From Candidatus Obscuribacterales bacterium (lineage in GTDB: Bacteria > Cyanobacteriota > Vampirovibrionia > Obscuribacterales > Obscuribacteraceae), in NCBI GenBank assembly GCA_965228855.1, contig CBDDIJ010000003.1:1856001-1920000 (forward strand): a stretch of DNA of 64,000 bases, in the 5' to 3' direction. Each line of letters starts with the position of its first letter. Positions within the stretch are counted from its first letter, which is position 1. The notes beneath the pieces were generated by a model, which did not search any database, was not told where the DNA came from, and worked only from the letters and a program-made list of their open reading frames with translations. Below are positions 13,212 to 57,041 of the stretch, piece by piece. A program made the position numbers and the translations under genes.

Positions 13212-13334
13212 TTAGAACTCAGCGACGAGTCCGAACATCGCGATCAAAATGATAAAGCTGAAGTACAGGAGGAAGAACCACACCCAGCGGTTGATCAATT
13301 GAGTTTCGGTTAGTTTTACGTCTTTGCCGGCCAT
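13212..13334 (-). CDS. 40-aa single-TM microprotein (not in ORF track), last gene of the respiratory operon
   Basis: MAGKDVKLTETQLINRWVWFFLLYFSFIILIAMFGLVAEF; AAAGAGAG upstream of ATG. Confidence 0.6.
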   Translation of the reverse strand: MAGKDVKLTETQLINRWVWFFLLYFSFIILIAMFGLVAEF

Positions 13335-13376: not shown

Positions 13377-14018
13377 CTAGTCCTTCTTCTCTTCGGTCTT
13401 AGATTCTTCGGCTTTCTTTTCTTCTGCGGGCTTGTCACCGGAGGTGGTGGCAGCATCAACCTTAGCTTCAGCAGCCTTATCGGCATCTGCCGGGGTTGTT
13501 TCAGCAGTAGGTTTCGACTCTATAGCAGCCTTCGCATCTTCTTTCTTATCGTCACTCGGAGTAGCAGCTGGTGCAGCCGGCTTAGCGGCGGGCGCAGGTT
13601 TGGGTGCGGCTGCCGGAGCAGCGGCGAGCGGTTCCAAACCTTTGATGTAGGCGACGAACTCTTTTGCTTCAGCTTCAAACTTCCCGCGTTGCAGTCTGGA
13701 TAGCCAGAGCGCAAGTACACGTCGTCTTTCGACCGTCTTTTTCAAGCCGGGAGTACGCTCGCCTAAAAGTCTCTCGCGAATCATGCGATTGCCTTCGCGG
13801 TAATAGCAGTCGCCGATCTGGCAGCCGGTGACGATGACTCCGGAAGCGCCGGCTTTAAAGGCACCTTCGATCATCAGCGGTTGTACCATTCCGGAGCAAG
13901 GCAGTTTTACGACTTTCAGACCGGAAACGGTCGTGCAGTTACCTGCTTTGTCGCAGATGCCATCAACATCGGCGGCACGCTCGCATAAAAGTGTTATTAC
14001 TGTCTTCTGATCGGTCAT
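13377..14018 (-). CDS. MvhD/FlpD-like [2Fe-2S] subunit with Ala/Pro/Lys/Glu-rich tail
   Basis: 'LLCE...VVKLPCSGMV...GASGVIVTGCQIGDCYYREGN' MvhD Cys pattern. Confidence 0.85.
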   Translation of the reverse strand: MTDQKTVITLLCERAADVDGICDKAGNCTTVSGLKVVKLPCSGMVQPLMIEGAFKAGASGVIVTGCQIGDCYYREGNRMIRERLLGERTPGLKKTVERRRVLALWLSRLQRGKFEAEAKEFVAYIKGLEPLAAAPAAAPKPAPAAKPAAPAATPSDDKKEDAKAAIESKPTAETTPADADKAAEAKVDAATTSGDKPAEEKKAEESKTEEKKD

Positions 14019-14068
14019 TTCGGTTTACCTTCTGAACTCCGAATCGTGGTCACTGTATATGGTGCCGA

Positions 14069-15217
14069 TTAGGCAGATTGGCTGTTGGCCAATTGTTTGA
14101 TTTTCTCGTTAACATCCGAATCCAGGAGATTCGGCAAATCGATCGCATCGAATGCGCAAGCGCCGACGCAGACGCCGCATCCAGAGCAACGGTAAGGTTT
14201 GACCGTCGCCAACAATTTGAAACGAGAGCCGGCTGGAGCAGGCACCATCTCGATAGCCTGGAACGGGCAATCTTTGAAGCAGAACGAGCAACCTGTACAT
14301 TTCGAATCAACGACTTCCGCCGATTCCACCGGTTTCTTATTAGTGAACGGATACGGAATCAAACAGAGTGCAGCCGTGATCAAGATCATCGAGATCCAGA
14401 AGCCTGTCGTGCCAAGTGCACCGAGAACGGCATAGGGCAACAGGAAGAAAACGTCGATATCCATGCTGGTCGGTTGCGAATTCAAATCTGCAATCTTGGT
14501 TGCGGTGATCGGGAAGAAGTAGACAACCGCAAAGATGATGGTCATCAAAATGTAGTTGAGCGCAGGAGGCGGTGTGATGACCGGTCTCGACATACGCACG
14601 TAGTGGATCCACAGAGCGAAAAGTAGTGAGAACGAAAGTCCGATGTGGATAAACAGGAAGTTCGACAGGGTCAGGTTGGAAATTGTCCGACCGTTTAGGA
14701 ACCAGTTTCTAAGCGGTTCTCCAATAACCGGAACGACTTCGAGAGCCGATACGGTCATACGAGTAAGAAGGAGCGAGCGCTCGTCCCAGATCAGGTAATA
14801 ACCGGTTTGACCGATGAAAAGAACCATCAACAGCAGGACGATACCTGATTCCCACTGAACCCAGCGGTACTGGCGATATCTATCGGTAAACCACACACGC
14901 ACCATGTGAATCAAAATTGCAACGACCATCGCATCGCCGGCGTATCTGTGAACCGCGCGGATCACCGCGCCGAACGGAATATCGTTGGTGATGTATGCGA
15001 CCGAGGTATACGCATTAACGAGGTTCTTCGAGAAGTACGCGTTATCGATCGTCGGCACATAGTAGGCAAAAAGAAGCAGCCCACTTAAGAACAGGATATA
15101 CATGATGAACTGCGGCAAGGCGCCGTGGTAGTACAACGGGTTGTACTTGCTCGTCGATATCTTGTTGAGTAAATCTTCTGTTACCAGAAAAATTTGGGTC
15201 CAGATATTCGTTTTCAT
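14069..15217 (-). CDS. cytochrome b-like protein fused to a 2x[4Fe-4S] ferredoxin domain
   Basis: four heme His (HRYAGDAMVVAILIH; HIGLSFSLLFALWIH); CTGCSFCFKDCP and CSGCGVCVGACA. Confidence 0.88.
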   Translation of the reverse strand: MKTNIWTQIFLVTEDLLNKISTSKYNPLYYHGALPQFIMYILFLSGLLLFAYYVPTIDNAYFSKNLVNAYTSVAYITNDIPFGAVIRAVHRYAGDAMVVAILIHMVRVWFTDRYRQYRWVQWESGIVLLLMVLFIGQTGYYLIWDERSLLLTRMTVSALEVVPVIGEPLRNWFLNGRTISNLTLSNFLFIHIGLSFSLLFALWIHYVRMSRPVITPPPALNYILMTIIFAVVYFFPITATKIADLNSQPTSMDIDVFFLLPYAVLGALGTTGFWISMILITAALCLIPYPFTNKKPVESAEVVDSKCTGCSFCFKDCPFQAIEMVPAPAGSRFKLLATVKPYRCSGCGVCVGACAFDAIDLPNLLDSDVNEKIKQLANSQSA

Positions 15218-15268
15218 TAGTCCTGTCCTTCGGCTCCCCTCTTCAATTCACGAAATCAAATTTCAAAA

Positions 15269-15607
15269 CTACTTCTTCTCGGGCAACGTCATCTTCTCTT
15301 CGTCATCAGCGCTGCCGATAGCCGCAATCGCAATCGCAGCACCTAAAAGAGCCAAGCCGATAGCCAGGGAGTAAACATATTCGCCTTTTTTACCCTCTGC
15401 CTTTTGCGACTCCAGATGCGTTTTGTGTTTATCGGCCGAGCCGCCATAAATCTCGCCCAGGGCCTTTCCAACCGGCTCGAGGTGCAGGAGTTTAAAAGTG
15501 TGAGGCAAATTATCGACATTCATGTCCAACTCTGCCCACGGCATCATTGCGCTTGCCCAGAGACAAAGCCCAATCGCCGCCGCCATTAATCCAACTCGAA
15601 TAGCCAC
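15269..15607 (-). CDS. hypothetical 2-TM membrane protein of the respiratory operon
   Basis: two hydrophobic helices; tight operon spacing. Confidence 0.65.
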   Translation of the reverse strand: MAIRVGLMAAAIGLCLWASAMMPWAELDMNVDNLPHTFKLLHLEPVGKALGEIYGGSADKHKTHLESQKAEGKKGEYVYSLAIGLALLGAAIAIAAIGSADDEEKMTLPEKK

Positions 15608-15610
15608 TTC

Positions 15611-16012
15611 TCAGCTCTCTCCCTTTTCAGTTACCACGACCTTGTTGCCGCTTTTGGGCTGCAGGGCAAGGTTGATTCTCTCAAACAACTGGATACGTTT
15701 TTTCAAAGTGCCTTTTGCTTTTTCTTCGAAGTAGACCCAGTAGGCATGCACTCCGAGAAACAACAAGGTGAAGACGGTGCCTGCGACCAGAGTGACGGCG
15801 TTGGCCAAACTCAAGTCCTTACCGATCTCGCGCCAACCTTCGAAAAAAAGAGAAAGCGCGTAAGCAGCACAGCTGAAGTTGATCAGCTTGTAGATGAACT
15901 TCACCTTTTGATGCGGGACCGAAGCATGCTCGGCAGTGCCACCATGTTCGGTGCCACCGGCTGATGCCTGCATCTTGTCCTTATTCGTCATCGAAAGTTG
16001 AAGTACTCCCAT
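15611..16012 (-). CDS. hypothetical 2-TM membrane protein of the respiratory operon
   Basis: start moved to ATG 16012 to avoid overlap with cytochrome b; two TM helices. Confidence 0.6.
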   Translation of the reverse strand: MGVLQLSMTNKDKMQASAGGTEHGGTAEHASVPHQKVKFIYKLINFSCAAYALSLFFEGWREIGKDLSLANAVTLVAGTVFTLLFLGVHAYWVYFEEKAKGTLKKRIQLFERINLALQPKSGNKVVVTEKGES

Positions 16013-16014
16013 GT

Positions 16015-17805
16015 CTATTTCTTGGCGTCCACTTGAGCAGCGGATTTGCTGCGAGCCACGAAGAAGGTCACAATCGCTGCAAGAGTGGTCACGAAGCCAC
16101 CAATCATCCACCACCAATCCACTTCAGGTACGCTCATCGGGTAGACCTCGAACGGTTTCGGATTGAGATTGGACAGGTTCATACGATCGTGGAAGTTGAC
16201 GTAATCCCAGGCCCATTTGTTGGCGATCATGAAATCGACCGCGCCTTTGTAGACAGGGTTTTTCTCGTCGAAGGTCGGAATGAGCTGGAACAACCAGTCG
16301 ATACCGGTTGTGGTGTTCTTGAGTTCTTCCAACTTCGCGACGGCAACATCACCGCCTTGAATTTTCTGAATCCACGAATTCACGGCAACCGTGAAGTCGG
16401 TGTTGTAAGGCATTTCAGTTCCTTTCGGAACCAGCGTGCGAATTGTGGTCTCCAGTTCGTCTGCCTTTCCACCCCAGAACGGTCTGAAGAGTAGATAGGT
16501 AAAGCCCTGCGTCACCGGCGACATAAACATTTCGGTTCTTGCCATGTAGTAGTACAGCACAGCGAGAATCGATTGCAGTCCGCCGAGAACTGCCATGACG
16601 ATTGAAGGACGAACTCCTTTTGCCCATTCCTTCGCATCTTTAGATTGCCAGATCATGACGATTTGCCATAGCAAGCCGACATCGATAGCAAGATATGAAA
16701 GTGAACGCCAGAACGGAGGATCGTAGTGAATGTTCGCTACGTTGATAACGATCAGGTATGAGAAGACAATCCACGAGACTCCACCCATGATGGTCATCAT
16801 CAGGATGAACGGGCGCTTCATGATGTTCTTTTCCGGTCCGGCGATCCAGGTGTCGAGGAACGGCAAGAGAATAACCGTCACCGGAATGACCATAGTGATT
16901 TCGGTAGCCACGACCGGCTCCAGGTATTTGTACATCTGATACAAGCCCAGGAAGTACCAGTCAGAAAGAATCGGCAACGGCGTGACGTCCGGGTCGGAAC
17001 GTCGACCTTGAGCAGCCGGGAGAATTACAGCAGTAATCACGAGCATCATGATGACGGTAAAGCGCTTGATCCAGTTGAGCGGCATGCGCACGTAGTTGTT
17101 GTTGTAGAAATAGATTTCTACAAGAATCAAAGGGATCAAGGAGAAAGCCAGGTGAAGAGAGAAGAAGCGCGTAATCGTTTCTTGAGTGATTGCACCACCT
17201 GCGCCAAGAAGAACCTCGGCGGTGTTCCAACCCAAGTGCAACGACTTGACGAGAGGCTCGTAGTAATCGCCCATTACAGGGAACTGGTCCATGTAAGTCG
17301 GGAATGTGGCAAACACTTTTGTAGCCCAAAAAGCGCGCTGGTTCCAAATCAACAAATATCCGGTCAGACCGGAATACATTGACAGGAGAAGCATCACAAG
17401 ACCGATTGCGATGTTGAATTCTTTGCTCGGTTTATAGTCAGCAAGAATGAACATACGGAAAACTCGCATGGTAGCGGCGATAATCATCGCGTCCGCCCCA
17501 TACTTATGAACCCCTCGGACTATATTTCCGAAAGGCACGTGCCATTGAATTGCATAGATCGAGTCGTACGCTGCCGCTTTGGTAGGCACGTACCACATGA
17601 TGAGCATGAGTCCGGAAGCCATCGTAACGAACCAGACCAGATAGAAAATCGGTCCCAGCGCGTAGAACGGATTGGTCTTCGCTTCCAGCTGATGGTGCTC
17701 ATCGAATATGTCGATGTTTTTGAAGCGCGTTCCTAAGTAGTCCCAGAGGAACTGAACGCCTCCCCACACCTTATTTCCAGGTTTGTTTGCAGTGCTACTC
17801 GTCAT
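16015..17805 (-). CDS. cytochrome b of a cytochrome bc complex (long form, C-terminal membrane extension)
   Basis: 'GNIVRGVHKYGA', 'GLTGYLLIWNQRAFWA', 'TITRFFSLH', Qo-like 'ILSDWYFLGLYQ'. Confidence 0.88.
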   Translation of the reverse strand: MTSSTANKPGNKVWGGVQFLWDYLGTRFKNIDIFDEHHQLEAKTNPFYALGPIFYLVWFVTMASGLMLIMWYVPTKAAAYDSIYAIQWHVPFGNIVRGVHKYGADAMIIAATMRVFRMFILADYKPSKEFNIAIGLVMLLLSMYSGLTGYLLIWNQRAFWATKVFATFPTYMDQFPVMGDYYEPLVKSLHLGWNTAEVLLGAGGAITQETITRFFSLHLAFSLIPLILVEIYFYNNNYVRMPLNWIKRFTVIMMLVITAVILPAAQGRRSDPDVTPLPILSDWYFLGLYQMYKYLEPVVATEITMVIPVTVILLPFLDTWIAGPEKNIMKRPFILMMTIMGGVSWIVFSYLIVINVANIHYDPPFWRSLSYLAIDVGLLWQIVMIWQSKDAKEWAKGVRPSIVMAVLGGLQSILAVLYYYMARTEMFMSPVTQGFTYLLFRPFWGGKADELETTIRTLVPKGTEMPYNTDFTVAVNSWIQKIQGGDVAVAKLEELKNTTTGIDWLFQLIPTFDEKNPVYKGAVDFMIANKWAWDYVNFHDRMNLSNLNPKPFEVYPMSVPEVDWWWMIGGFVTTLAAIVTFFVARSKSAAQVDAKK

Positions 17806-18380
17806 GCGATCGAACCGGCCTCCAACGATGTTATTTCGATCTTTCCGCCATCCTTCTTGAGCTGGAATTTACGCGGCGGACGCGGCGCCGGACCGGAGAT
17901 AACCTTGCCGCCATGAGCAATGTCATAAACGGAGAGGTGGCACGGGCAGGCGAATACTGGACCAGCGGGTTTGTAGTTATAGCCTTTGGCGCACTCTTCA
18001 GGCTCTTTGACGAAGTTGAAGATGCAACCAAGGTGCGGACAGATGCGGCTGTACGCTTCTACGTCACCATTCGGCAATTTAACGATGAAACCAGGGATGG
18101 TACGAACTTCTTTGAGTTCAGGGTTGTACTCCAGGTATTTCTGGTTGAAAGTAAACGGAATGCAAGTCCAGGGCTCCGGGAAATCTGCATCCGTGAATGT
18201 TGGAATTGGTGGCTCTGCGAGCGGTTGGTCGGATTTACCGAGGATGTCCAACGGACCCAGAGTCGGGCGCAGGAAGCGCAAGAACGGCGAGACCAGCAGT
18301 CCGAAAGTCATTGCCAGCGGAACAGCTGCCACCGTCTTTAGTATCGTTCTTCTCTTAACACCATCACTCATGGCAGTCAC
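17802..18380 (-). CDS. Rieske [2Fe-2S] subunit of a cytochrome bc complex
   Basis: Tat-like 'KRRTILK' plus TM; CPHLGC and CPCHLSVY; GPAPRP. Confidence 0.92.
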   Translation of the reverse strand: MTAMSDGVKRRTILKTVAAVPLAMTFGLLVSPFLRFLRPTLGPLDILGKSDQPLAEPPIPTFTDADFPEPWTCIPFTFNQKYLEYNPELKEVRTIPGFIVKLPNGDVEAYSRICPHLGCIFNFVKEPEECAKGYNYKPAGPVFACPCHLSVYDIAHGGKVISGPAPRPPRKFQLKKDGGKIEITSLEAGSIA

Positions 18381-18384
18381 CTTC

Positions 18385-19377
18385 TTATTGAACAGATTCT
18401 TTTCTGTCGAGTTTTTCAGCTATGCGCGCCTTGTCAGCGGCCGCCTTATCTTTGATATTAGTTGAAATCGCGCTTGGCGACGCGGAATTGTTGCGCGATG
18501 CTTTCTTGCCTTCAAGAGCTGGCGCGCTGTCTTCGTGGAAGTTTCGAACGTACTGCGTCAGCTTCCAGATATAATCCGCGTCAAACGTGACTTTGTTTCC
18601 TCTGTCTTGTTTGCCGAGGAAGTTGGGCATACCCTCCCAGCGGATACCGTTGGCGATGTGGTCCCAGATTTGTTCGTCGGTTCTGTCGTAGAAACGATCG
18701 AACTGAGTGAAGTTGGCGGGAGCCGGCTGTAGAACCAGACCTTTGTTAAGCTGCCCGTCTCCTGCGCCTCGGCTTCCGTGACACACGGCGCAATTCGCAC
18801 CGAACACGGCTTTCATTGCCAATCGCTCTTCGTCAGAAAGTAACGGAACAGCAAGACTTCTCGTGTAGAAAATCAGGTCCCATCTCTGGCGCTTGCTCAG
18901 CTTATCGAGAAACGCTTCGTGCTTCATGACACGGGGCGCAGCCTCTTTGGTCTCCGTTTCGCTTCCTTCAGCAGTTCCAAGAGCGCTGGTCACAGGCGTA
19001 ATCTCTTCCTTGCCTTCGCCGAAAGAAATCAACTTATATTGATCGACCGGCTTGCGTTGTCTCATACGCTCGACATTGGTAAGGTCGATATCGCATTGAC
19101 CGGCTACGCCTTTGCCGTCGGCACCGTGACACGATGCGCAATTTTGCTGCTGCCAGTAGACACTTCCGTCATAGACAGAAGGTACTGCGTCCGGGAAAAG
19201 AACGACGTCCTTACCGGCAGTAGCATCTCTGTTAGCCAGTTCCGACTCCTTCTGTCCGACACTCACCTGAGATTGGCAAGCTGTCAGGGACACGGCAATC
19301 GGGATAGTAAGGAGCGCAAATCCAAGCAGATTGAATTTGCGAGTTAGTTTTTTCAATCGAGTGAGTTGAGGGTGCAT
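18385..19377 (-). CDS. diheme c-type cytochrome, probable lipoprotein
   Basis: CASCH and CAVCH; 'LTAC' lipobox; distal Met 'GMPNF'. Confidence 0.88.
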   Translation of the reverse strand: MHPQLTRLKKLTRKFNLLGFALLTIPIAVSLTACQSQVSVGQKESELANRDATAGKDVVLFPDAVPSVYDGSVYWQQQNCASCHGADGKGVAGQCDIDLTNVERMRQRKPVDQYKLISFGEGKEEITPVTSALGTAEGSETETKEAAPRVMKHEAFLDKLSKRQRWDLIFYTRSLAVPLLSDEERLAMKAVFGANCAVCHGSRGAGDGQLNKGLVLQPAPANFTQFDRFYDRTDEQIWDHIANGIRWEGMPNFLGKQDRGNKVTFDADYIWKLTQYVRNFHEDSAPALEGKKASRNNSASPSAISTNIKDKAAADKARIAEKLDRKESVQ

Positions 19378-19416: not shown

Positions 19417-19587
19417 TCAATAATTGAAGAACGGAATCCAGGAGACCGCTGCATACATGAAAATAAGCACGAACGCGACGACGAGAAACGGAGGAGGCGG
19501 ACCTTCTCCGATTCGGTATTCCGACACTACTTCGTAGTGCTCTTCGGCTGGTTCTTCTTTAGCTTTTGGATTGCTTGGGTTAGCCAT
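19417..19587 (-). CDS. 56-aa single-TM protein resembling the CcoP/FixP N-terminal anchor (not in ORF track)
   Basis: MANPSNPKAKEEPAEEHYEVVSEYRIGEGPPPPFLVVAFVLIFMYAAVSWIPFFNY; GAGGTGA RBS. Confidence 0.65.
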   Translation of the reverse strand: MANPSNPKAKEEPAEEHYEVVSEYRIGEGPPPPFLVVAFVLIFMYAAVSWIPFFNY

Positions 19588-19606: not shown

Positions 19607-19858
19607 CTAGCTCTGCGACTTGAGGGCCGCGGCGGCTCTGGCGCGCTCGACCAGCGCTTTCGCCCGTTCCGATGCCGACGTGTCTTCGCCGTCATCGAGC
19701 ATGTCGAATTTGGAACCTTCCAGATCCTCGAACTCGCCATTACCGAATGCCCACCACATCGCGATGATGCCGACTACGAAGAATACGGCGCATACACCGA
19801 ATGCTACGTACAATCCCGCATCAAGCGGAGCCTGGTTAAGAATACAGTTGGGACACAT
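19607..19858 (-). CDS. ccoS: cbb3-type oxidase maturation protein CcoS-like
   Basis: TM helix followed by 'WWAFGNGEFEDLE..K..MLDD'. Confidence 0.75.
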   Translation of the reverse strand: MCPNCILNQAPLDAGLYVAFGVCAVFFVVGIIAMWWAFGNGEFEDLEGSKFDMLDDGEDTSASERAKALVERARAAAALKSQS

Positions 19859-20811
19859 TAGTGCTCATCGCCTCCTGAATGTGGCTCGTACTGCTGCTTC
19901 GTGAGCTTAGGCAAACGAATAGGTTCGAGTTTGTCGAGTTGATCGAGTTTGTCGATTGTTTGCTCGACATCTTGAGGAAGAGTCTTGAGGTACGCGACAA
20001 GGTACCAACGTTCTTCTTCCGTCAAAATCAGGTTGAAGCGCGGCATTCTTGTACCGACGACGCCTTCGGACACGCGATAGAACCACATTTCATCGTCGTA
20101 CTGTTTATAGAACGGTCTGGTGAAGTTTGCAGGTTTCTTCGTCAGAGAAATCGAGTTCGGTCCGTTGCCCTTCGCTTCCAATCCATGACAGGCAGCGCAG
20201 TTTTGCGTGTAGATCCCGCGTCCGGCGTTAGCCGAAGCATCGGAATTTGTGTCTACGTGTTTTCTCTCGTGCAGTGCGAATCCAACCGGCGTGCTGACCT
20301 GATATTCATCAGGCGCTGCAACGTAATGATTGACTGTACGCTTGTTTCCGAGAGTCTGGATATAGCAGACCAGGTCGTTCATATCTCTATCATTCAGGTA
20401 GCTGAAGCTCGGCATGATCGAACCGGGCTTAACAGCGCGAGGTTGAATCAAGTGAGCTTTCTGCCATTCCGAGGGAAATTTGTTTCCTTCGTTAGTCAGG
20501 TCGGGACCGGTTCTAGCGGTACCAAGTTGGTGAGGTGTTTCATACACGTAATCACCAGCCTTAACGAGCGGTCCGTATTCACGGTCCTGCAGACGCGTGA
20601 ACTGGGTGTGGCAGTAGAAGCAACCTTCTCTTACGTAGATTCTTCTTCCGCGAACCGGGTCGCCAACTTTGGCTTCAGCTTTGTAATCGTTTCTTGTGTC
20701 AGACGGGTCTGGTCTGAACAACACCATCGGCATCAACACTGTTGAGAAGATGATGATGAAGAACGTTGAGATGATACCAATGGCACCGAGTCGGTAGCCG
20801 TAGCCATTCAT
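19858..20811 (-). CDS. ccoO: cbb3-type cytochrome c oxidase subunit II fused to an extra cytochrome c domain
   Basis: 'GRRIYVREGCFYCHTQ', 'GTARTGPDL', 'PGSIMPSF'; second heme site CAACH. Confidence 0.9.
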   Translation of the reverse strand: MNGYGYRLGAIGIISTFFIIIFSTVLMPMVLFRPDPSDTRNDYKAEAKVGDPVRGRRIYVREGCFYCHTQFTRLQDREYGPLVKAGDYVYETPHQLGTARTGPDLTNEGNKFPSEWQKAHLIQPRAVKPGSIMPSFSYLNDRDMNDLVCYIQTLGNKRTVNHYVAAPDEYQVSTPVGFALHERKHVDTNSDASANAGRGIYTQNCAACHGLEAKGNGPNSISLTKKPANFTRPFYKQYDDEMWFYRVSEGVVGTRMPRFNLILTEEERWYLVAYLKTLPQDVEQTIDKLDQLDKLEPIRLPKLTKQQYEPHSGGDEH

Positions 20812-22202
20812 TAGACTTTGACCTCCCGTGTTTTGGCCGTGACTTCGACCGCTTTAGGCGTATAAATAGTGCGGAAGGCGTTGTAGCAAAACAGCGCTTG
20901 TCCCGTCACGATCATGATGCCGCTTATGGCGCGGACGAACCAGTATGGGTACAACGTGTTGGACCACTGGTCGACCGGGAAGCCCATAGCCCAACCTGCA
21001 GACTGAACCAGTCCGGCAACGGTGAGTGAGAAGTACATGATCAAGAAGCCGATGAATTTGAGCCAGTAGTGACCGCGAACCAGTCCCATGCTGTGCCATT
21101 CTCTGCCGGTCAATCTGGGCAGCATGTAATAAACAGCTGAAGTCAGAATGAAGGAGAAAGCACCGAGCAAGGCAGCGTGCGCGTGACCGACGACCCACTG
21201 AGTGAAGTGGATATACCAGTTGATCCAGCGCGTCGCCTGGAACGGTCCCTGCAAGCAAGTCATCAAATAGAAGAGTGCAGAGGTCATCGCAAATCTTAGC
21301 GGTAGATCATCAGCCCCCTGTCCCCACTTACCCTTCATGGTCATAAAGAAGTTGGTGAGAACTGTGAATACTGGAACCAACAAGAAGATCGACGAGATGA
21401 CCGCAATCGCCTTCAACCATTCCGGAACCGGTGATTGAAGAATATGGTGTGTTCCTGTCGGAGCATAAAACAGCGCAATCCCCCAGAATCCGAGCATTGA
21501 CAGTCCGTGGCTGTACAACGGAGCCTGAGTGTAGCGAGGTATCAAGTAGTACATGATGCCGACGCCTACCGTCGTGAACCACATACCCAGGATGTTGTGG
21601 CCGTAGAACCAACCGATGATGGCGTCGTTCAAACCAGGCAAGAACACGAAAGTTCTTTGACCGATGATGTAAACGAGGGGAAACCAGAACAACGAACCGA
21701 GGAAGTACCAGAGGCTGACGTAGAGTTTTTTAACTCTGCGGTGAGCCACTGTCATCAGGACGTTGAATGTGACCGTACACAGCGCGACTGCAGCCATGCA
21801 ATCGAGGATCGCGCCGAGTTCGGCATACTCACGACCTTCCGTGTTGCCGTTCAGGAGGGTGCAGAATGCACCAATCATCAACAGGTTCCAAGCCCACATA
21901 GTGAAGTTGCCGAGGCGCTCCGAAAACAGTTTGTTTTTGCAGAGGGTCGGAACCATGTGGAACATTGAAGCGATGTAACCCATCGAAAGCCAACCGATGG
22001 TCACAGCATTTACGTGCCACATTCTTAAGTGTGGCATTGAGAACTGAGGAATGTTATGGACCAAGTCCGGGTTATAGAACTCCATGGAGGCGAAAAGACC
22101 CGCCCCCATTCCGAACAGTGACCACCACATCGCCGAAACGAGAAAGTTACGGCTGGCGCTCCCTTCCTCGTTGCTCAGGAATTTGTCTAGCAAACCGCTC
22201 AC
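20811..22202 (-). CDS. ccoN: cbb3-type (C-family) heme-copper oxidase subunit I
   Basis: 'LRMWHVN', 'WFYGHN', 'FYAPTGTHH', 'WVVGHAH' ligand motifs; about 12 TM helices. Confidence 0.93.
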   Translation of the reverse strand: MSGLLDKFLSNEEGSASRNFLVSAMWWSLFGMGAGLFASMEFYNPDLVHNIPQFSMPHLRMWHVNAVTIGWLSMGYIASMFHMVPTLCKNKLFSERLGNFTMWAWNLLMIGAFCTLLNGNTEGREYAELGAILDCMAAVALCTVTFNVLMTVAHRRVKKLYVSLWYFLGSLFWFPLVYIIGQRTFVFLPGLNDAIIGWFYGHNILGMWFTTVGVGIMYYLIPRYTQAPLYSHGLSMLGFWGIALFYAPTGTHHILQSPVPEWLKAIAVISSIFLLVPVFTVLTNFFMTMKGKWGQGADDLPLRFAMTSALFYLMTCLQGPFQATRWINWYIHFTQWVVGHAHAALLGAFSFILTSAVYYMLPRLTGREWHSMGLVRGHYWLKFIGFLIMYFSLTVAGLVQSAGWAMGFPVDQWSNTLYPYWFVRAISGIMIVTGQALFCYNAFRTIYTPKAVEVTAKTREVKV

Positions 22203-22461: not shown

Positions 22462-23346
22462 TCAAACTTCATCTTGGAAAGGCGAGAGCCATTTTTGCTC
22501 GATCAATTTTTTCCAGCGCTGCTCGTGCACACGATGGGTTTCCGCCAGTGCGCGGACACAAGTTGTTGAAAACAACTTTAATTCGTCAGCATCGATTCCT
22601 TTTACAGGCTTCTTATTAAGTACAGCGGCGAGAATTTCCGCCGCTTTGCAATGAACATTCCGTGAACTGAGCTTTTGTTGAAACTCATCAAGAGCTGCTT
22701 CCAGTTCACTAAGTGCCTCGGTCTCCTTTTCATTTGGAGGTCGCACCTTGGGTTTTGGCTCAACAGGATTTGCCAGATTGATGCCATTAAAGCGATTGGC
22801 TGTTTCAAGTCCTCCTGCCGAGATCCAGGAAGAAGCAGTGTCGGCAGCGAGCTTTAAACTTTTTTGATAGAGGTCGACGTCTTCAGGGGCGACGCGTGAC
22901 AACACATAAGCGGCGCGGCGCGCCCCGCCAGGATCGGGACCGACTCCGACCTTCAATCGATCGAAATTGTTCTTCCCACCCAGACATTCGATTATCGACT
23001 CGATGCCATGCTGACCGCCGGCGCCGCCGCCTTGCTGCAGGCGAACACGTCCAAGAATAAAGGACACGTCGTCGTGAATCACCAGTATGTTGGGAATCTC
23101 AATCTTAAGATAGGAAGCAATAGCGCGAACGGCTTCGCCAGAGAGATTCATGTAAGTATCCGGCTTGAGGAAAATTACATCTTCGTTTTTAAATCTTGTC
23201 TTACAAAAATAGCCTTTGTATTTGCCCTCGAACTTCAGGCTCGCACCAGCTTCGATGCAGAGAGCGTCCACTACTTGAAAGCCGACGTTATGGCGGGTCC
23301 ATTCATACTGTAGCCCGGGATTACCGAGACCTACGACCAGTTTCAT
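22462..23346 (-). CDS. pth: peptidyl-tRNA hydrolase with ~100-aa C-terminal extension
   Basis: 'MKLVVGLGNPG..YEWTRHNVGF', 'KPDTYMNLSG', 'IHDD', 'GGQHGIESI'; start moved to ATG 23346. Confidence 0.92.
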   Translation of the reverse strand: MKLVVGLGNPGLQYEWTRHNVGFQVVDALCIEAGASLKFEGKYKGYFCKTRFKNEDVIFLKPDTYMNLSGEAVRAIASYLKIEIPNILVIHDDVSFILGRVRLQQGGGAGGQHGIESIIECLGGKNNFDRLKVGVGPDPGGARRAAYVLSRVAPEDVDLYQKSLKLAADTASSWISAGGLETANRFNGINLANPVEPKPKVRPPNEKETEALSELEAALDEFQQKLSSRNVHCKAAEILAAVLNKKPVKGIDADELKLFSTTCVRALAETHRVHEQRWKKLIEQKWLSPFQDEV

Positions 23347-23627
23347 TTCACAAACCCTATAGCGGAGTGAGAGCAAGTTATCGAAAGGGCGAAAACAAGG
23401 CGGCGAGCCGTTTTGCTCCAGCAGAGTCAAGTTTCCGGCACGTCGGTTGCACTGCAAGTCTACTTCCTCGCATCGTACATTATTTATAAACGGATTTATC
23501 AACGCACGCTGTGATGATCTGATCTTAAGCGCTCAACAAGAGATAATATAGTCCGACGGTATTTTTCGCACTCGCCTTCAGGCGGCGCAATGATTTAGAT
23601 CGCTTCATTTTTTAGAGAGGCTCGGAA

Positions 23628-25079
23628 ATGACTCAGAACGAAAGTCCCCAGATCCCTTATCTGCCGCATACGAAAGGCGATCGAGAGGCAATGCTGGAAA
23701 CCATCGGCGCAAAGACTTTCGAAGACCTGGTCTCCCACATTCCGAAACAACTTCGCATCGAAGCGCTGAAAGTTCGAGAAGGACTTTCTGAACTCGAACT
23801 CGTCAAAGAGATTCAAGCGCTGGCAGCAAAGAACACGCCGGCTTCGCAACAACACTCCTTCCTGGGCGGTGGTTCATATCGACGTTACGTGCCATCAGTG
23901 GTTTCACAGGTGATATCACGTTCGGAATTCGCAACAGCATATACACCATACCAACCAGAAGTATCGCAAGGCAGCTTGCAGGTCATATACGAGTTCCAGA
24001 CAGCGATTTGCCTGTTAACTGGAATGGATGTAGCAAACGCCTCGATGTACGACGGTCCGACCGCTTGTGCTGAAGCGGGTCTGATGGCCGCGCGACTCAC
24101 CAACAGAAAAAAGATTGCGATACTCCGCTCGGTAAACCCAGAATACCGCATGGTGTCTCACGCTTACGCAAAAGCATGCGGTCTCGACTTTAACGTCATT
24201 GATACCGCCGACGGCATCGTGAAGACCGACGATCTCAAGCTCGATTCAGAAACAGCCGCGCTCATCGTCCAGTATCCTAACTTCTTTGGATGCTTCGAGG
24301 ACCTGGAAGCGGTTTCTAAAAAGGCAAAAGAAGCGGGCGCTTTGCTGGTTGTCGTTACCGATCCGATCGCTCTTTCGATTCTTACGCCACCAGGAGATCT
24401 GGGAGCGGACATTGTAGTCGGCGATGCTCAGCCCTGTGGAAACTTCCTGTCATTCGGCGGTCCATCAGCCGGATACATGGCTTGCAAAAAGGATTTCGTC
24501 AGACAGCTGCCCGGTCGACTTGCCGGCATCACAGTGGATAAGAACGGGAAACGCGCTTTCACACTGACGCTTCAAACTCGTGAGCAACACATCCGCCGCG
24601 CCCGAGCGACGTCCAACATCTGCACCAACCAGGCGTTAAACGCGCTCGCCATGCTGGTTTACCTCACCCTCCTCGGCAAGACCGGATTGCAGCAAATCGC
24701 CACAATCTCTTTGCAACGAACTCACTATTTGTTCGACCAGGTGACGAAACTCACTGGCGTCAAGCCTTTATATAAGCATCAGTTTTTCAATGAGTTTGTT
24801 TTGAAATTCGATGCAAACGTCGAACACGTTTTCGAAAAGATGCAAAGCAAAGGATATCTGCCGGGCATCACGTTAACACGCATGCTTCCGGAACTGGAGA
24901 ATTGTTTACTTGTTGCGGTCACCGAGATGAATTCGAAAGAAGAGCTCGACGGTTACGTCGCCGCCATGAAAGAGACTCTTGACGAAATTGCCAGAGGCGA
25001 CCTTGCCGGCACGAAAAATGACAATCTGAGAAAAAAAGAAGCTAAAGGCATGGCGTTAGCCGGCAAGCAAGAGTCTTAA
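23628..25079 (+). CDS. gcvPA: glycine dehydrogenase (decarboxylating) subunit 1
   Basis: 'YTPYQPEVSQG', 'ANASMYDG', 'LTLQTREQHIRRARATSNICTNQAL'. Confidence 0.95.
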   Translation: MTQNESPQIPYLPHTKGDREAMLETIGAKTFEDLVSHIPKQLRIEALKVREGLSELELVKEIQALAAKNTPASQQHSFLGGGSYRRYVPSVVSQVISRSEFATAYTPYQPEVSQGSLQVIYEFQTAICLLTGMDVANASMYDGPTACAEAGLMAARLTNRKKIAILRSVNPEYRMVSHAYAKACGLDFNVIDTADGIVKTDDLKLDSETAALIVQYPNFFGCFEDLEAVSKKAKEAGALLVVVTDPIALSILTPPGDLGADIVVGDAQPCGNFLSFGGPSAGYMACKKDFVRQLPGRLAGITVDKNGKRAFTLTLQTREQHIRRARATSNICTNQALNALAMLVYLTLLGKTGLQQIATISLQRTHYLFDQVTKLTGVKPLYKHQFFNEFVLKFDANVEHVFEKMQSKGYLPGITLTRMLPELENCLLVAVTEMNSKEELDGYVAAMKETLDEIARGDLAGTKNDNLRKKEAKGMALAGKQES

Positions 25080-56159: not shown

Positions 56160-57041
56160 TTGGTTCTCCTCCCATTTTTTTCGCCTATTCTTAAAACATT
56201 GAACAGCTCAGATTCCAAAGAAGGTCGGACCCAGCTGGATTTGCCACGGGTCGGACAGATCAATTTCAGTAATTGCCTTCCAATCAATTTGCCGATAGAG
56301 CTCGGAAGAGTCTCTCTGGACGCCACAATAGTGAATGGCACTCCGGCTGAGTTGAATAATATGATTGCCGCGGGTGACCTCGAGATCACGTCAGGAAGCT
56401 CATTTCTCTACCTCAGCCGCGACGATCTCGATTTGGTTCCGGACCTCTCGATATCCTGTTATGGACCGGTTGGAAGTGTTTTATTCTTTTCAAAATGTAA
56501 ACCGGAAGAGCTGGATGGTGCTGTCATAGCCGTTCCCAAGACATCGGCCACTTCCATCCGTTTAACCCAATTGATGTTGGATCTAGAGTACGGCGCGAAG
56601 CCGGAAGTCGTGGTGATGGATAAACCGGCAACTACCGATGCCAATGACAAGAGACATCAAGGGGCTCTCATAATCGGCGACGCAGCTTTGAAAGTCGACG
56701 ACGAGTGGTCGTCACAAAATCATCGCATCGATCTTGGAGAATGGTGGACGAAACGATTTAAACTTCCGATGGTATTTGGAGTATTTGTTGCACGGCAGAA
56801 ATTTGCAGAACATTTTCCGGATAGTTATCGTCATGTCAGTGAGAGCCTCCGATGCGCCAGAGAAATTGGCGAGTCTGAATTGCTCGAACAAGTCATCGAA
56901 AGAGCGGTTACCATGACCGGGCTCTCGCGGACACGGATGGAAACTTACTTCATCGACAATCTAAATTGGAATCTGGACGCAAAACACCGTGAGAGCCTGG
57001 ACCTGTTTGCGCGACTTCTTAAACAACATAATCTGCTATAA
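56160..57041 (+). CDS. mqnA: chorismate dehydratase, futalosine menaquinone pathway (start may be 56199 or later)
   Basis: 'RVGQINFSNCLPI', 'GPVGSVL', 'SATS', 'LIIGDAAL', 'DLGEWW...LPMVFG'. Confidence 0.85.
   Translation: MVLLPFFSPILKTLNSSDSKEGRTQLDLPRVGQINFSNCLPINLPIELGRVSLDATIVNGTPAELNNMIAAGDLEITSGSSFLYLSRDDLDLVPDLSISCYGPVGSVLFFSKCKPEELDGAVIAVPKTSATSIRLTQLMLDLEYGAKPEVVVMDKPATTDANDKRHQGALIIGDAALKVDDEWSSQNHRIDLGEWWTKRFKLPMVFGVFVARQKFAEHFPDSYRHVSESLRCAREIGESELLEQVIERAVTMTGLSRTRMETYFIDNLNWNLDAKHRESLDLFARLLKQHNLL

Follow-up and report, generated by a model that had tools for sequence, protein, structure and literature searches.

Two cytochromes b with reciprocal losses in a Vampirovibrionia complex III operon suggest a division of labour between unlike subunits

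The window analysed here, 64,000 nucleotides of a Candidatus Obscuribacterales bacterium (Cyanobacteriota; Vampirovibrionia; assembly GCA_965228855.1, contig CBDDIJ010000003.1, positions 1,856,001 to 1,920,000), carries a minus-strand operon in which one Rieske gene accompanies two cytochromes b. The first, b-1 (16015..17805; 596 residues, with a C-terminal extension), has lost the histidines that ligate haem bH and has kept the motif of the quinol-oxidation (Qo) site, while the second, b-2 (14069..15217; 382 residues), has all four haem histidines, a Qo site that appears to be blocked, and a C-terminal domain with two [4Fe-4S] cluster motifs. This class-wide variant of the Rieske/cytochrome b complex is real, and to read the operon as an ordinary b6f complex would be wrong. 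A division of labour between b-1 and b-2 is, as far as sequence can tell, well supported, because their conservation is reciprocal, their genes co-occur, and engineered dimers with the same knockout pattern work in vivo. Likewise, the architecture of the complex is strongly suggested by sequence.

Alignment with solved b6 and bc1 chains places b-1 residues H100 and H218 on the bL ligands of cytochrome b6, and R114 and Y232, 14 residues past each, at the bH positions, within helices (93-121 and 208-236) that are confidently modelled in the monomer. There is no further histidine near the bH sites, and cysteine is absent from the whole protein. In an alignment of 60 orthologues, which came from 35 loci of Obscuribacterales type, 22 loci of other families in the class, two metagenome contigs and the window (the b-2 set of 60 was composed alike), position 114 is Arg in 51 and Lys in eight, with one row truncated there, and position 232 is Tyr in 59 and His in one; E230 and the Qo motif SDWY (residues 281-284) are each present in 60/60. 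The wider family comprises 243 protein-search matches (P0001-120, P0122-134 and P0270-379; fragments and canonical matches left out), and in these the helix-B bH site is Arg (223) or Lys (20) and never His. The helix-D site is Tyr in 213, Arg in 14, His in six, Met in five, Phe in three, Trp in one and Gln in one, and SDWY is present in 242 of the 243. Judged from these alignments, a bis-histidine bH is impossible throughout the family. Pseudogene decay or a frameshift was ruled out, since the substitutions are fixed across all 243 proteins. On the cytoplasmic side, at the place expected of bH, residues 34-36 (FDE), R/K114, R117, E230 and R240 form an invariant charged cluster, for which a structural plug, a proton path and a docking site are candidate readings. 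Proteins of the b-1 type also occur in Armatimonadota, to judge by source names, and a metagenome contig (L062) has the same Rieske-b1-b2-mvhD order at 33-39% identity. Three further proteins (P0139, P0143, P0147) make up a sister group of b-1 with PDWY, which likewise lacks both bH histidines.

The haem histidines of b-2 (H90, H104, H191 and H205) are all present in 60/60 aligned orthologues. Residues 86-205 match residues 93-212 of Rhodobacter capsulatus cytochrome b at equal length, which pairs H191 with H198 and H205 with H212 (numbered as in PMC4330944) and puts L151 on G158, the glycine whose replacement by Trp inactivates the Qo site of the R. capsulatus bc1 complex (PMC4152375). Position 151 is Leu in 49 and Ile in 11 of the 60 b-2 sequences, and Ala, as in b6, in 59/59 of b-1; Leu151 is a stronger sign of a dead Qo site than loss of the motif. 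The latter is incomplete: where an earlier note on this DNA had seen no PEWY-like motif in b-2, a remnant (I254-D-V-F) can be aligned, with Asp255 in 59/60 and Trp256 in 36/60, though Pro254 in 0/60. Both the Qo motif and the cd1 helix (SDWY, WATKVF) are found in b-1 and not in b-2. The ferredoxin domain of b-2, with CxxCxxCxxxC at 307-317 and again at 344-354, would lie on the cytoplasmic side, because six predicted transmembrane helices were counted ahead of it. Position 210, equivalent to the H217 of the canonical quinone-reduction (Qi) site, is Ser, Thr, Gln or Asn and never His, and YHGA and ALGP stand where CLGG would be expected, for which reason a haem ci of the b6f type was rejected; a non-standard site could nevertheless exist. 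From these residues we infer the haem content of both proteins and the lack of a Qi site in b-2. Fold searches with the monomer models matched cytochrome b only.

Directly behind b-2 lies mvhD (13377..14018), which encodes an MvhD/FlpD-like protein with a low-complexity tail (PF02662, E=3e-19) and is the sole PF02662 match in the genome. Its four cysteines (12, 41, 66 and 71) are conserved in 59/59 aligned orthologues and probably bind a [2Fe-2S] cluster. The earlier note had thus been correct in its open reading frames (ORFs) and coordinates, in giving b-1 only the first histidine of helices B and D, followed by Arg and Tyr, together with a PEWY-like SDWY, and in giving b-2 four histidines, two [4Fe-4S] motifs and an MvhD-like neighbour. 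Among the findings that it named as undoing its reading were alternative bH ligands in b-1 and an intact Qo site in b-2, and alignment produced neither an alternative ligand pair nor such a site.

Conservation of the two proteins is reciprocal. In a diverse subset of 24 b-1 and 23 b-2 rows, mean majority identity is 0.99 in the cd1 helix of b-1 versus 0.56 in that of b-2, and 0.98 versus 0.54 in the ef loop. Conversely, the helix-C Trp and Gly, which we take to line bH, are kept in 23/23 of b-2, and in b-1 the Trp is found in 0/24 and the Gly in 4/24. The genes also travel together: among 401 Vampirovibrionia genomes, b-1 is present in 166 and b-2 in 165, with both in 160, b-1 alone in six and b-2 alone in five (tables compared by hand), and all 11 discordant genomes are <90% complete or >5% contaminated. 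The 299 good-quality genomes include 84 with b-1 and 84 with b-2, and b-1 without b-2 was not found in any good-quality genome of the class. One large family of the class has neither gene (0/189). As related genomes are not independent, these counts describe the pattern and do not test it. Six other families contributed 22 loci, all of which keep the gene order as far as b-1 and 21 of which continue with b-2-mvhD; the exception (G368) has a split operon, with b-2 and mvhD on another contig together with orfC. This last gene (13212..13334), a previously unannotated 40-residue single-helix peptide, is a free ORF behind mvhD in 58/63 loci, the other five being three truncated loci, one split operon and one fused form. 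It travels with b-2-mvhD where the operon is split, and three distant b-1 proteins (P0127, P0133 and P0134/L062) end in it, a fusion that ties b-1 to the b-2-mvhD cassette. It is likely that orfC encodes a small subunit of the complex. Finally, b-1 and b-2 are the only PF00033 (cytochrome b) genes in three of five genomes checked.

On sequence grounds it is probable that b-1 and b-2 form a heterodimer, because a b-1 dimer would have no exit for the second electron and a b-2 dimer would have no Qo site. Combined, the two match the engineered G158W/H212N dimer. Such cross-inactivated dimers allow growth, symmetric knockouts do not, and symmetric H212N is inactive (PMC4152375). The bL-bL distance is 14 Å (PMC4330944), and bL-bL transfer is catalytically competent in engineered bc1 dimers (PMC4152375). 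In the reading that we prefer, menaquinol would be oxidised at the Qo site of b-1, and the low-potential electron would pass from bL of b-1 to bL and then bH of b-2, and would probably exit along the [4Fe-4S]-[4Fe-4S]-[2Fe-2S] chain to a carrier in the cytoplasm, possibly ferredoxin; the second electron would run through the Rieske protein and cytochrome c to the cbb3 oxidase. The exported electron may then return to menaquinone through a complex I without NuoEFG, which would add pumped protons per O2. We give this whole reading a probability of roughly 0.43. A fuller version, in which an obligately heterodimeric complex III turns over only by bL-bL transfer, draws on O2 reduction by the cbb3 oxidase to push menaquinol electrons up to ferredoxin, recycles them through a ferredoxin-dependent complex I and acts as the only complex III in many sister lineages of oxygenic cyanobacteria, is doubtful; it would amount to an "extended Q cycle" in which a cytoplasmic loop replaces Qi.

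Given the heterodimer, the odds of export are a little over half. Export is favoured because loss of bH removes an easy electron sink in b-1, and this loss, together with the missing His217 in b-2, fits a design that keeps the electron from quinone. Of 58 Rieske proteins, 47 carry the S-Y signature and 11 S-F, which under the signature rule of PMC4122944 denotes a high or mid-plus potential; in the same paper xDWY-type motifs (PDWY) accompany Rieske proteins of low potential. The futalosine-pathway genes of menaquinone synthesis occur in 5/5 genomes. By the symmetry argument of PMC12954380, where the pairing of a high-potential Rieske protein with menaquinone argues for a very low bL potential in anammox complexes, the same pairing here implies that bL is very reducing. 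NuoD was found in 5/5 genomes and an 11-subunit complex I (nuoABCDHIJKLMN) in G313, with a NuoF-family gene in 0/5. By redox bookkeeping with assumed potentials, export is near equilibrium, being favourable only with the Rieske side near +400 mV or with a well-reduced pool, and the whole loop fits the menaquinol-to-O2 span except at the highest values of proton-motive force and pumping.

Several observations weigh against this reading. At midpoint values, export to ferredoxin is uphill by 30-170 meV, and import is downhill from the reduced ferredoxin that 2-oxoacid:ferredoxin oxidoreductases (two matches in each of 5/5 genomes) provide. At the usual Qi cavity, b-2 has invariant N18, N26, Y29, Y30 and H31 (59/60), which could form a non-standard quinone site. 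Co-occurrence of the two genes could reflect shared service to the oxidase, and two more bc clusters, both canonical, are present in the genome of the window. Moreover, the 14 loci fetched for more distant relatives of b-2 (13 full-length in another phylum, and a Defluviimonas plasmid) all encode fusions of cytochrome b, ferredoxin domain and MvhD, with a Rieske or b-1 gene nearby in 0/14 (stretches of 4.5-20 kb). Eight other cytochrome b genes in five fusion-bearing genomes all have the helix-B bH histidine. The b-2 protein can therefore be a module that serves without b-1, and b-1 has not been seen without b-2; as stand-alone b-2 lacks b-1 and a Rieske protein, bifurcation cannot drive export there. 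The earlier note's interpretation is accordingly well supported in its division of labour and weakened by the occurrence of b-2-type proteins where b-1 and Rieske are absent.

The main rival is import from ferredoxin, which needs a quinone site in b-2. Here the same heterodimer would possess a non-standard quinone-reduction site, with one electron arriving across the dimer and the second from reduced ferredoxin through MvhD and the [4Fe-4S] pair, as in Mitchell's original Q cycle, or with both crossing the dimer and the wire as a side entry. MvhD is an electron entry port in Hdr complexes, and this role, the ferredoxin-reducing enzymes with their downhill flow and the invariant residues at the Qi cavity all speak for such a scheme. 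A Mitchell-type cycle has been discussed for b6f (PMC7908018), and the engineered cross-inactivated dimers complete a Q cycle (PMC4152375). Nevertheless, b-2 has neither a His at the H217 position nor the CxGG motif of haem ci, and on inspection helix E of the window's b-2 begins without an evident acidic residue; the scheme also leaves the loss of bH by b-1 unexplained and bypasses the proton pumping of complex I. We consider it unlikely. The earlier note's statement that the system is "not a canonical Q-cycle" is probable and short of certain, as a non-standard Qi site in b-2 could close the cycle across the dimer.

In a second alternative, two separate units would serve one oxidase: the b-2-MvhD wire would feed cytoplasmic electrons to the haem-copper oxidase, a role that its fused relatives may also play, and a b-1 homodimer would oxidise menaquinol without a Q cycle, with bL as a temporary store. 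A quick tree separates b-1 and b-2 types into two deep clades (support 98 and 100), which led us to reject a recent duplication, and the operon is split in G368; b-2 groups with the fused forms at SH-aLRT 100, although the tree gives no order of origin for stand-alone and partnered b-2. The 14/14 fused relatives, with neither b-1 nor Rieske nearby, still have a bulky residue at position 151 (Ile, Val or Leu), and several adjoin oxidase genes, with haem-copper oxidase subunit I in 6/14 and SCO in 8/14. Against this, a dimer without bH leaves the second electron with nowhere to go, as the inactive symmetric H212N illustrates, the Qo face of b-1 is near-invariant, as expected of canonical bifurcation, and orfC ties b-1 to b-2-mvhD, with no good-quality genome holding b-1 alone. 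We regard this alternative as rather improbable. Finally, that b-1 is self-sufficient through a second haem whose ligands are not histidines (Tyr232, close to Arg114) is very hard to credit: Tyr232 is exactly at the ligand position in 59/60 aligned orthologues and the helix-A Gly is kept, but a Tyr-ligated haem is disfavoured because position 232 varies in the wider family (Arg, Met, Phe, His, Trp or Gln in 30/243) while 114 stays Arg or Lys and E230 is constant, the helix-C Trp and Gly are lost, and a buried Arg-Glu pair filling the bH pocket would be simpler.

The operon itself is already in print. The Melainabacterial complex III-IV operon (PMC6349859; bioRxiv 10.1101/531145) has the same C-family oxygen reductase, Rieske and two cytochrome b-type genes, annotated as PetB/PetC or "two cytochrome bc", and the accessible portions of these texts do not mention that haem ligands are lost or the Qo site blocked, nor the Fe-S domain or MvhD; those of PMC4040986 and PMC4451040 mention only cbb3. 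A fusion of the b-2 type is likewise known. The PDWF-FeS clade of Kao and Hunte (2014; PMC4122944) combines cytochrome b, 4Fe-4S and MvhD domains, as here, with no function assigned in the portion available, but it is fused and has no Rieske gene in the cluster; here MvhD is split off, a Rieske protein and a bH-less partner are present, and IDVF (Pro 0/60) stands in place of PDWF or PDWY. The engineered G158W/H212N bc1 dimers (PMC4152375, PMC4330944) have the same two positions disabled in opposite subunits, although they are artificial and ubiquinone-based, with a canonical Qi site at the end and no Fe-S extension. The anammox Rieske/cytochrome b complexes with an NAD(P) oxidoreductase (PMC12954380, PMC5600118) share a high-potential Rieske protein, menaquinone and a proposed low-potential export over Fe-S clusters, but their models are homodimers in which b6 and subunit IV are split, and include haem cN and a flavoprotein; by contrast, the operon described here encodes two different long cytochromes b, no haem-c motif in them and no flavoprotein. 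The tail of b-2 and MvhD correspond to successive segments of the HdrA2 model (571-644 and 672-773), which recalls the C-terminal ferredoxin domain of HdrA with MvhD, save that there is no flavin domain here and that a dihaem cytochrome b anchors the module. Members of cyanobacterial cytochrome b subfamily K (PMC5600118), like b-1, have another residue in place of a haem histidine of helix 2, but they are short, with Glu or Gln as the replacement and the helix-1 Gly lost, while b-1 is long, has Arg or Lys and keeps the Gly and an intact Qo face; identity with subfamily K was rejected on these differences. Hence the literature check proposed in the earlier note did find the operon published, and neither reciprocal loss nor a natural heterodimer was found in the partial texts searched; the reciprocal-loss variant is apparently undescribed so far.

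Inter-monomer electron transfer in complex III under natural conditions has been in dispute for two decades, and engineered mutants have provided the only tests; a natural enzyme that works only by such transfer, if this is one, would open the question to direct study. Should the Fe-S chain export electrons, it would represent quinone-based bifurcation to ferredoxin driven by oxygen, with more protons per O2 for microaerobes. As the respiratory core of most non-fermentative Vampirovibrionia sampled, the operon bears on the rise of aerobic respiration beside cyanobacteria.

The operon runs, on the minus strand, ccoN, ccoO, ccoS, a 56-residue ORF, dihaem cytochrome c, Rieske, b-1, orfA, orfB, b-2, mvhD and orfC, and this order is constant across b-2 loci as far as each contig extends (n = 53 in genome contigs; 39 near full-length, mostly titled Obscuribacterales or Melainabacteria). 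It opens with ccoN (20811..22202; PF00115, best NCBIfam TIGR00780, below cut-off), for subunit I of a C-family (cbb3-type) oxygen reductase, followed by ccoO fused to a second c-type haem domain (19858..20811; PF02433 and PF00034), the maturation gene ccoS (19607..19858; PF03597) and the putative 56-residue ORF with one hydrophobic stretch (19417..19587). The dihaem cytochrome c (18385..19377; two PF00034 stretches) is the likely acceptor between Rieske protein and oxidase, and the Rieske [2Fe-2S] protein (17802..18380) has a twin-Arg N-terminus and both cluster boxes, CPHLGC...CPCHLSVY, with the S-Y signature; the operon thus encodes both Rieske protein and c-type acceptor. Between b-1 and b-2 lie two genes for small membrane proteins without Pfam matches, the conserved orfA (15611..16012) and the two-helix orfB (15269..15607). 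Searches for relatives of the b-1 tail and of orfA gave no usable match, and promoter and terminator scans returned chance level only. No Mvh-type partner was identified, the NiFe large-subunit family giving only weak matches in 2/5 genomes.

Upstream of the operon, ORFs at 23628-25079 and 22462-23502 resemble, by eye, glycine dehydrogenase subunit 1 and peptidyl-tRNA hydrolase, and one of two PF02621 futalosine-pathway genes is also in the window (G000:C3:1912247-1913023; about 56250-57020). Of the further bc clusters of this genome, one (L059, G000:C3 about 757400-761700) has a Rieske gene and a PEWY cytochrome b between two membrane proteins, and in the other (L060, G000:C3 1071500-1078700) a PDWY cytochrome b is fused to cytochrome c and accompanied by Rieske and an A-family oxidase. 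Outside the class, b-2 matches were found in 12/351 genomes of another phylum, that of G577, and no b-1-clade protein turned up among 151 genomes from the phylum to which G575 belongs, where the four matches are four-His types at helix B. Five stand-alone fusions (L225, L226, L229, L231 and L232) adjoin COX2/COX1/SCO genes, L229 with a NosD-like gene in addition. The neighbouring COX1 has HPSQQ in helix VI, without the cross-link Tyr four residues past the His, and may resemble the nitric oxide-reducing members of the superfamily. Finally, a helix followed by a soluble domain without Pfam match, about 170-215 residues in all, is either fused behind MvhD (L220-L224) or encoded by a separate ORF beside it (L225-L228, L230-L232), and is a candidate partner of the stand-alone form.

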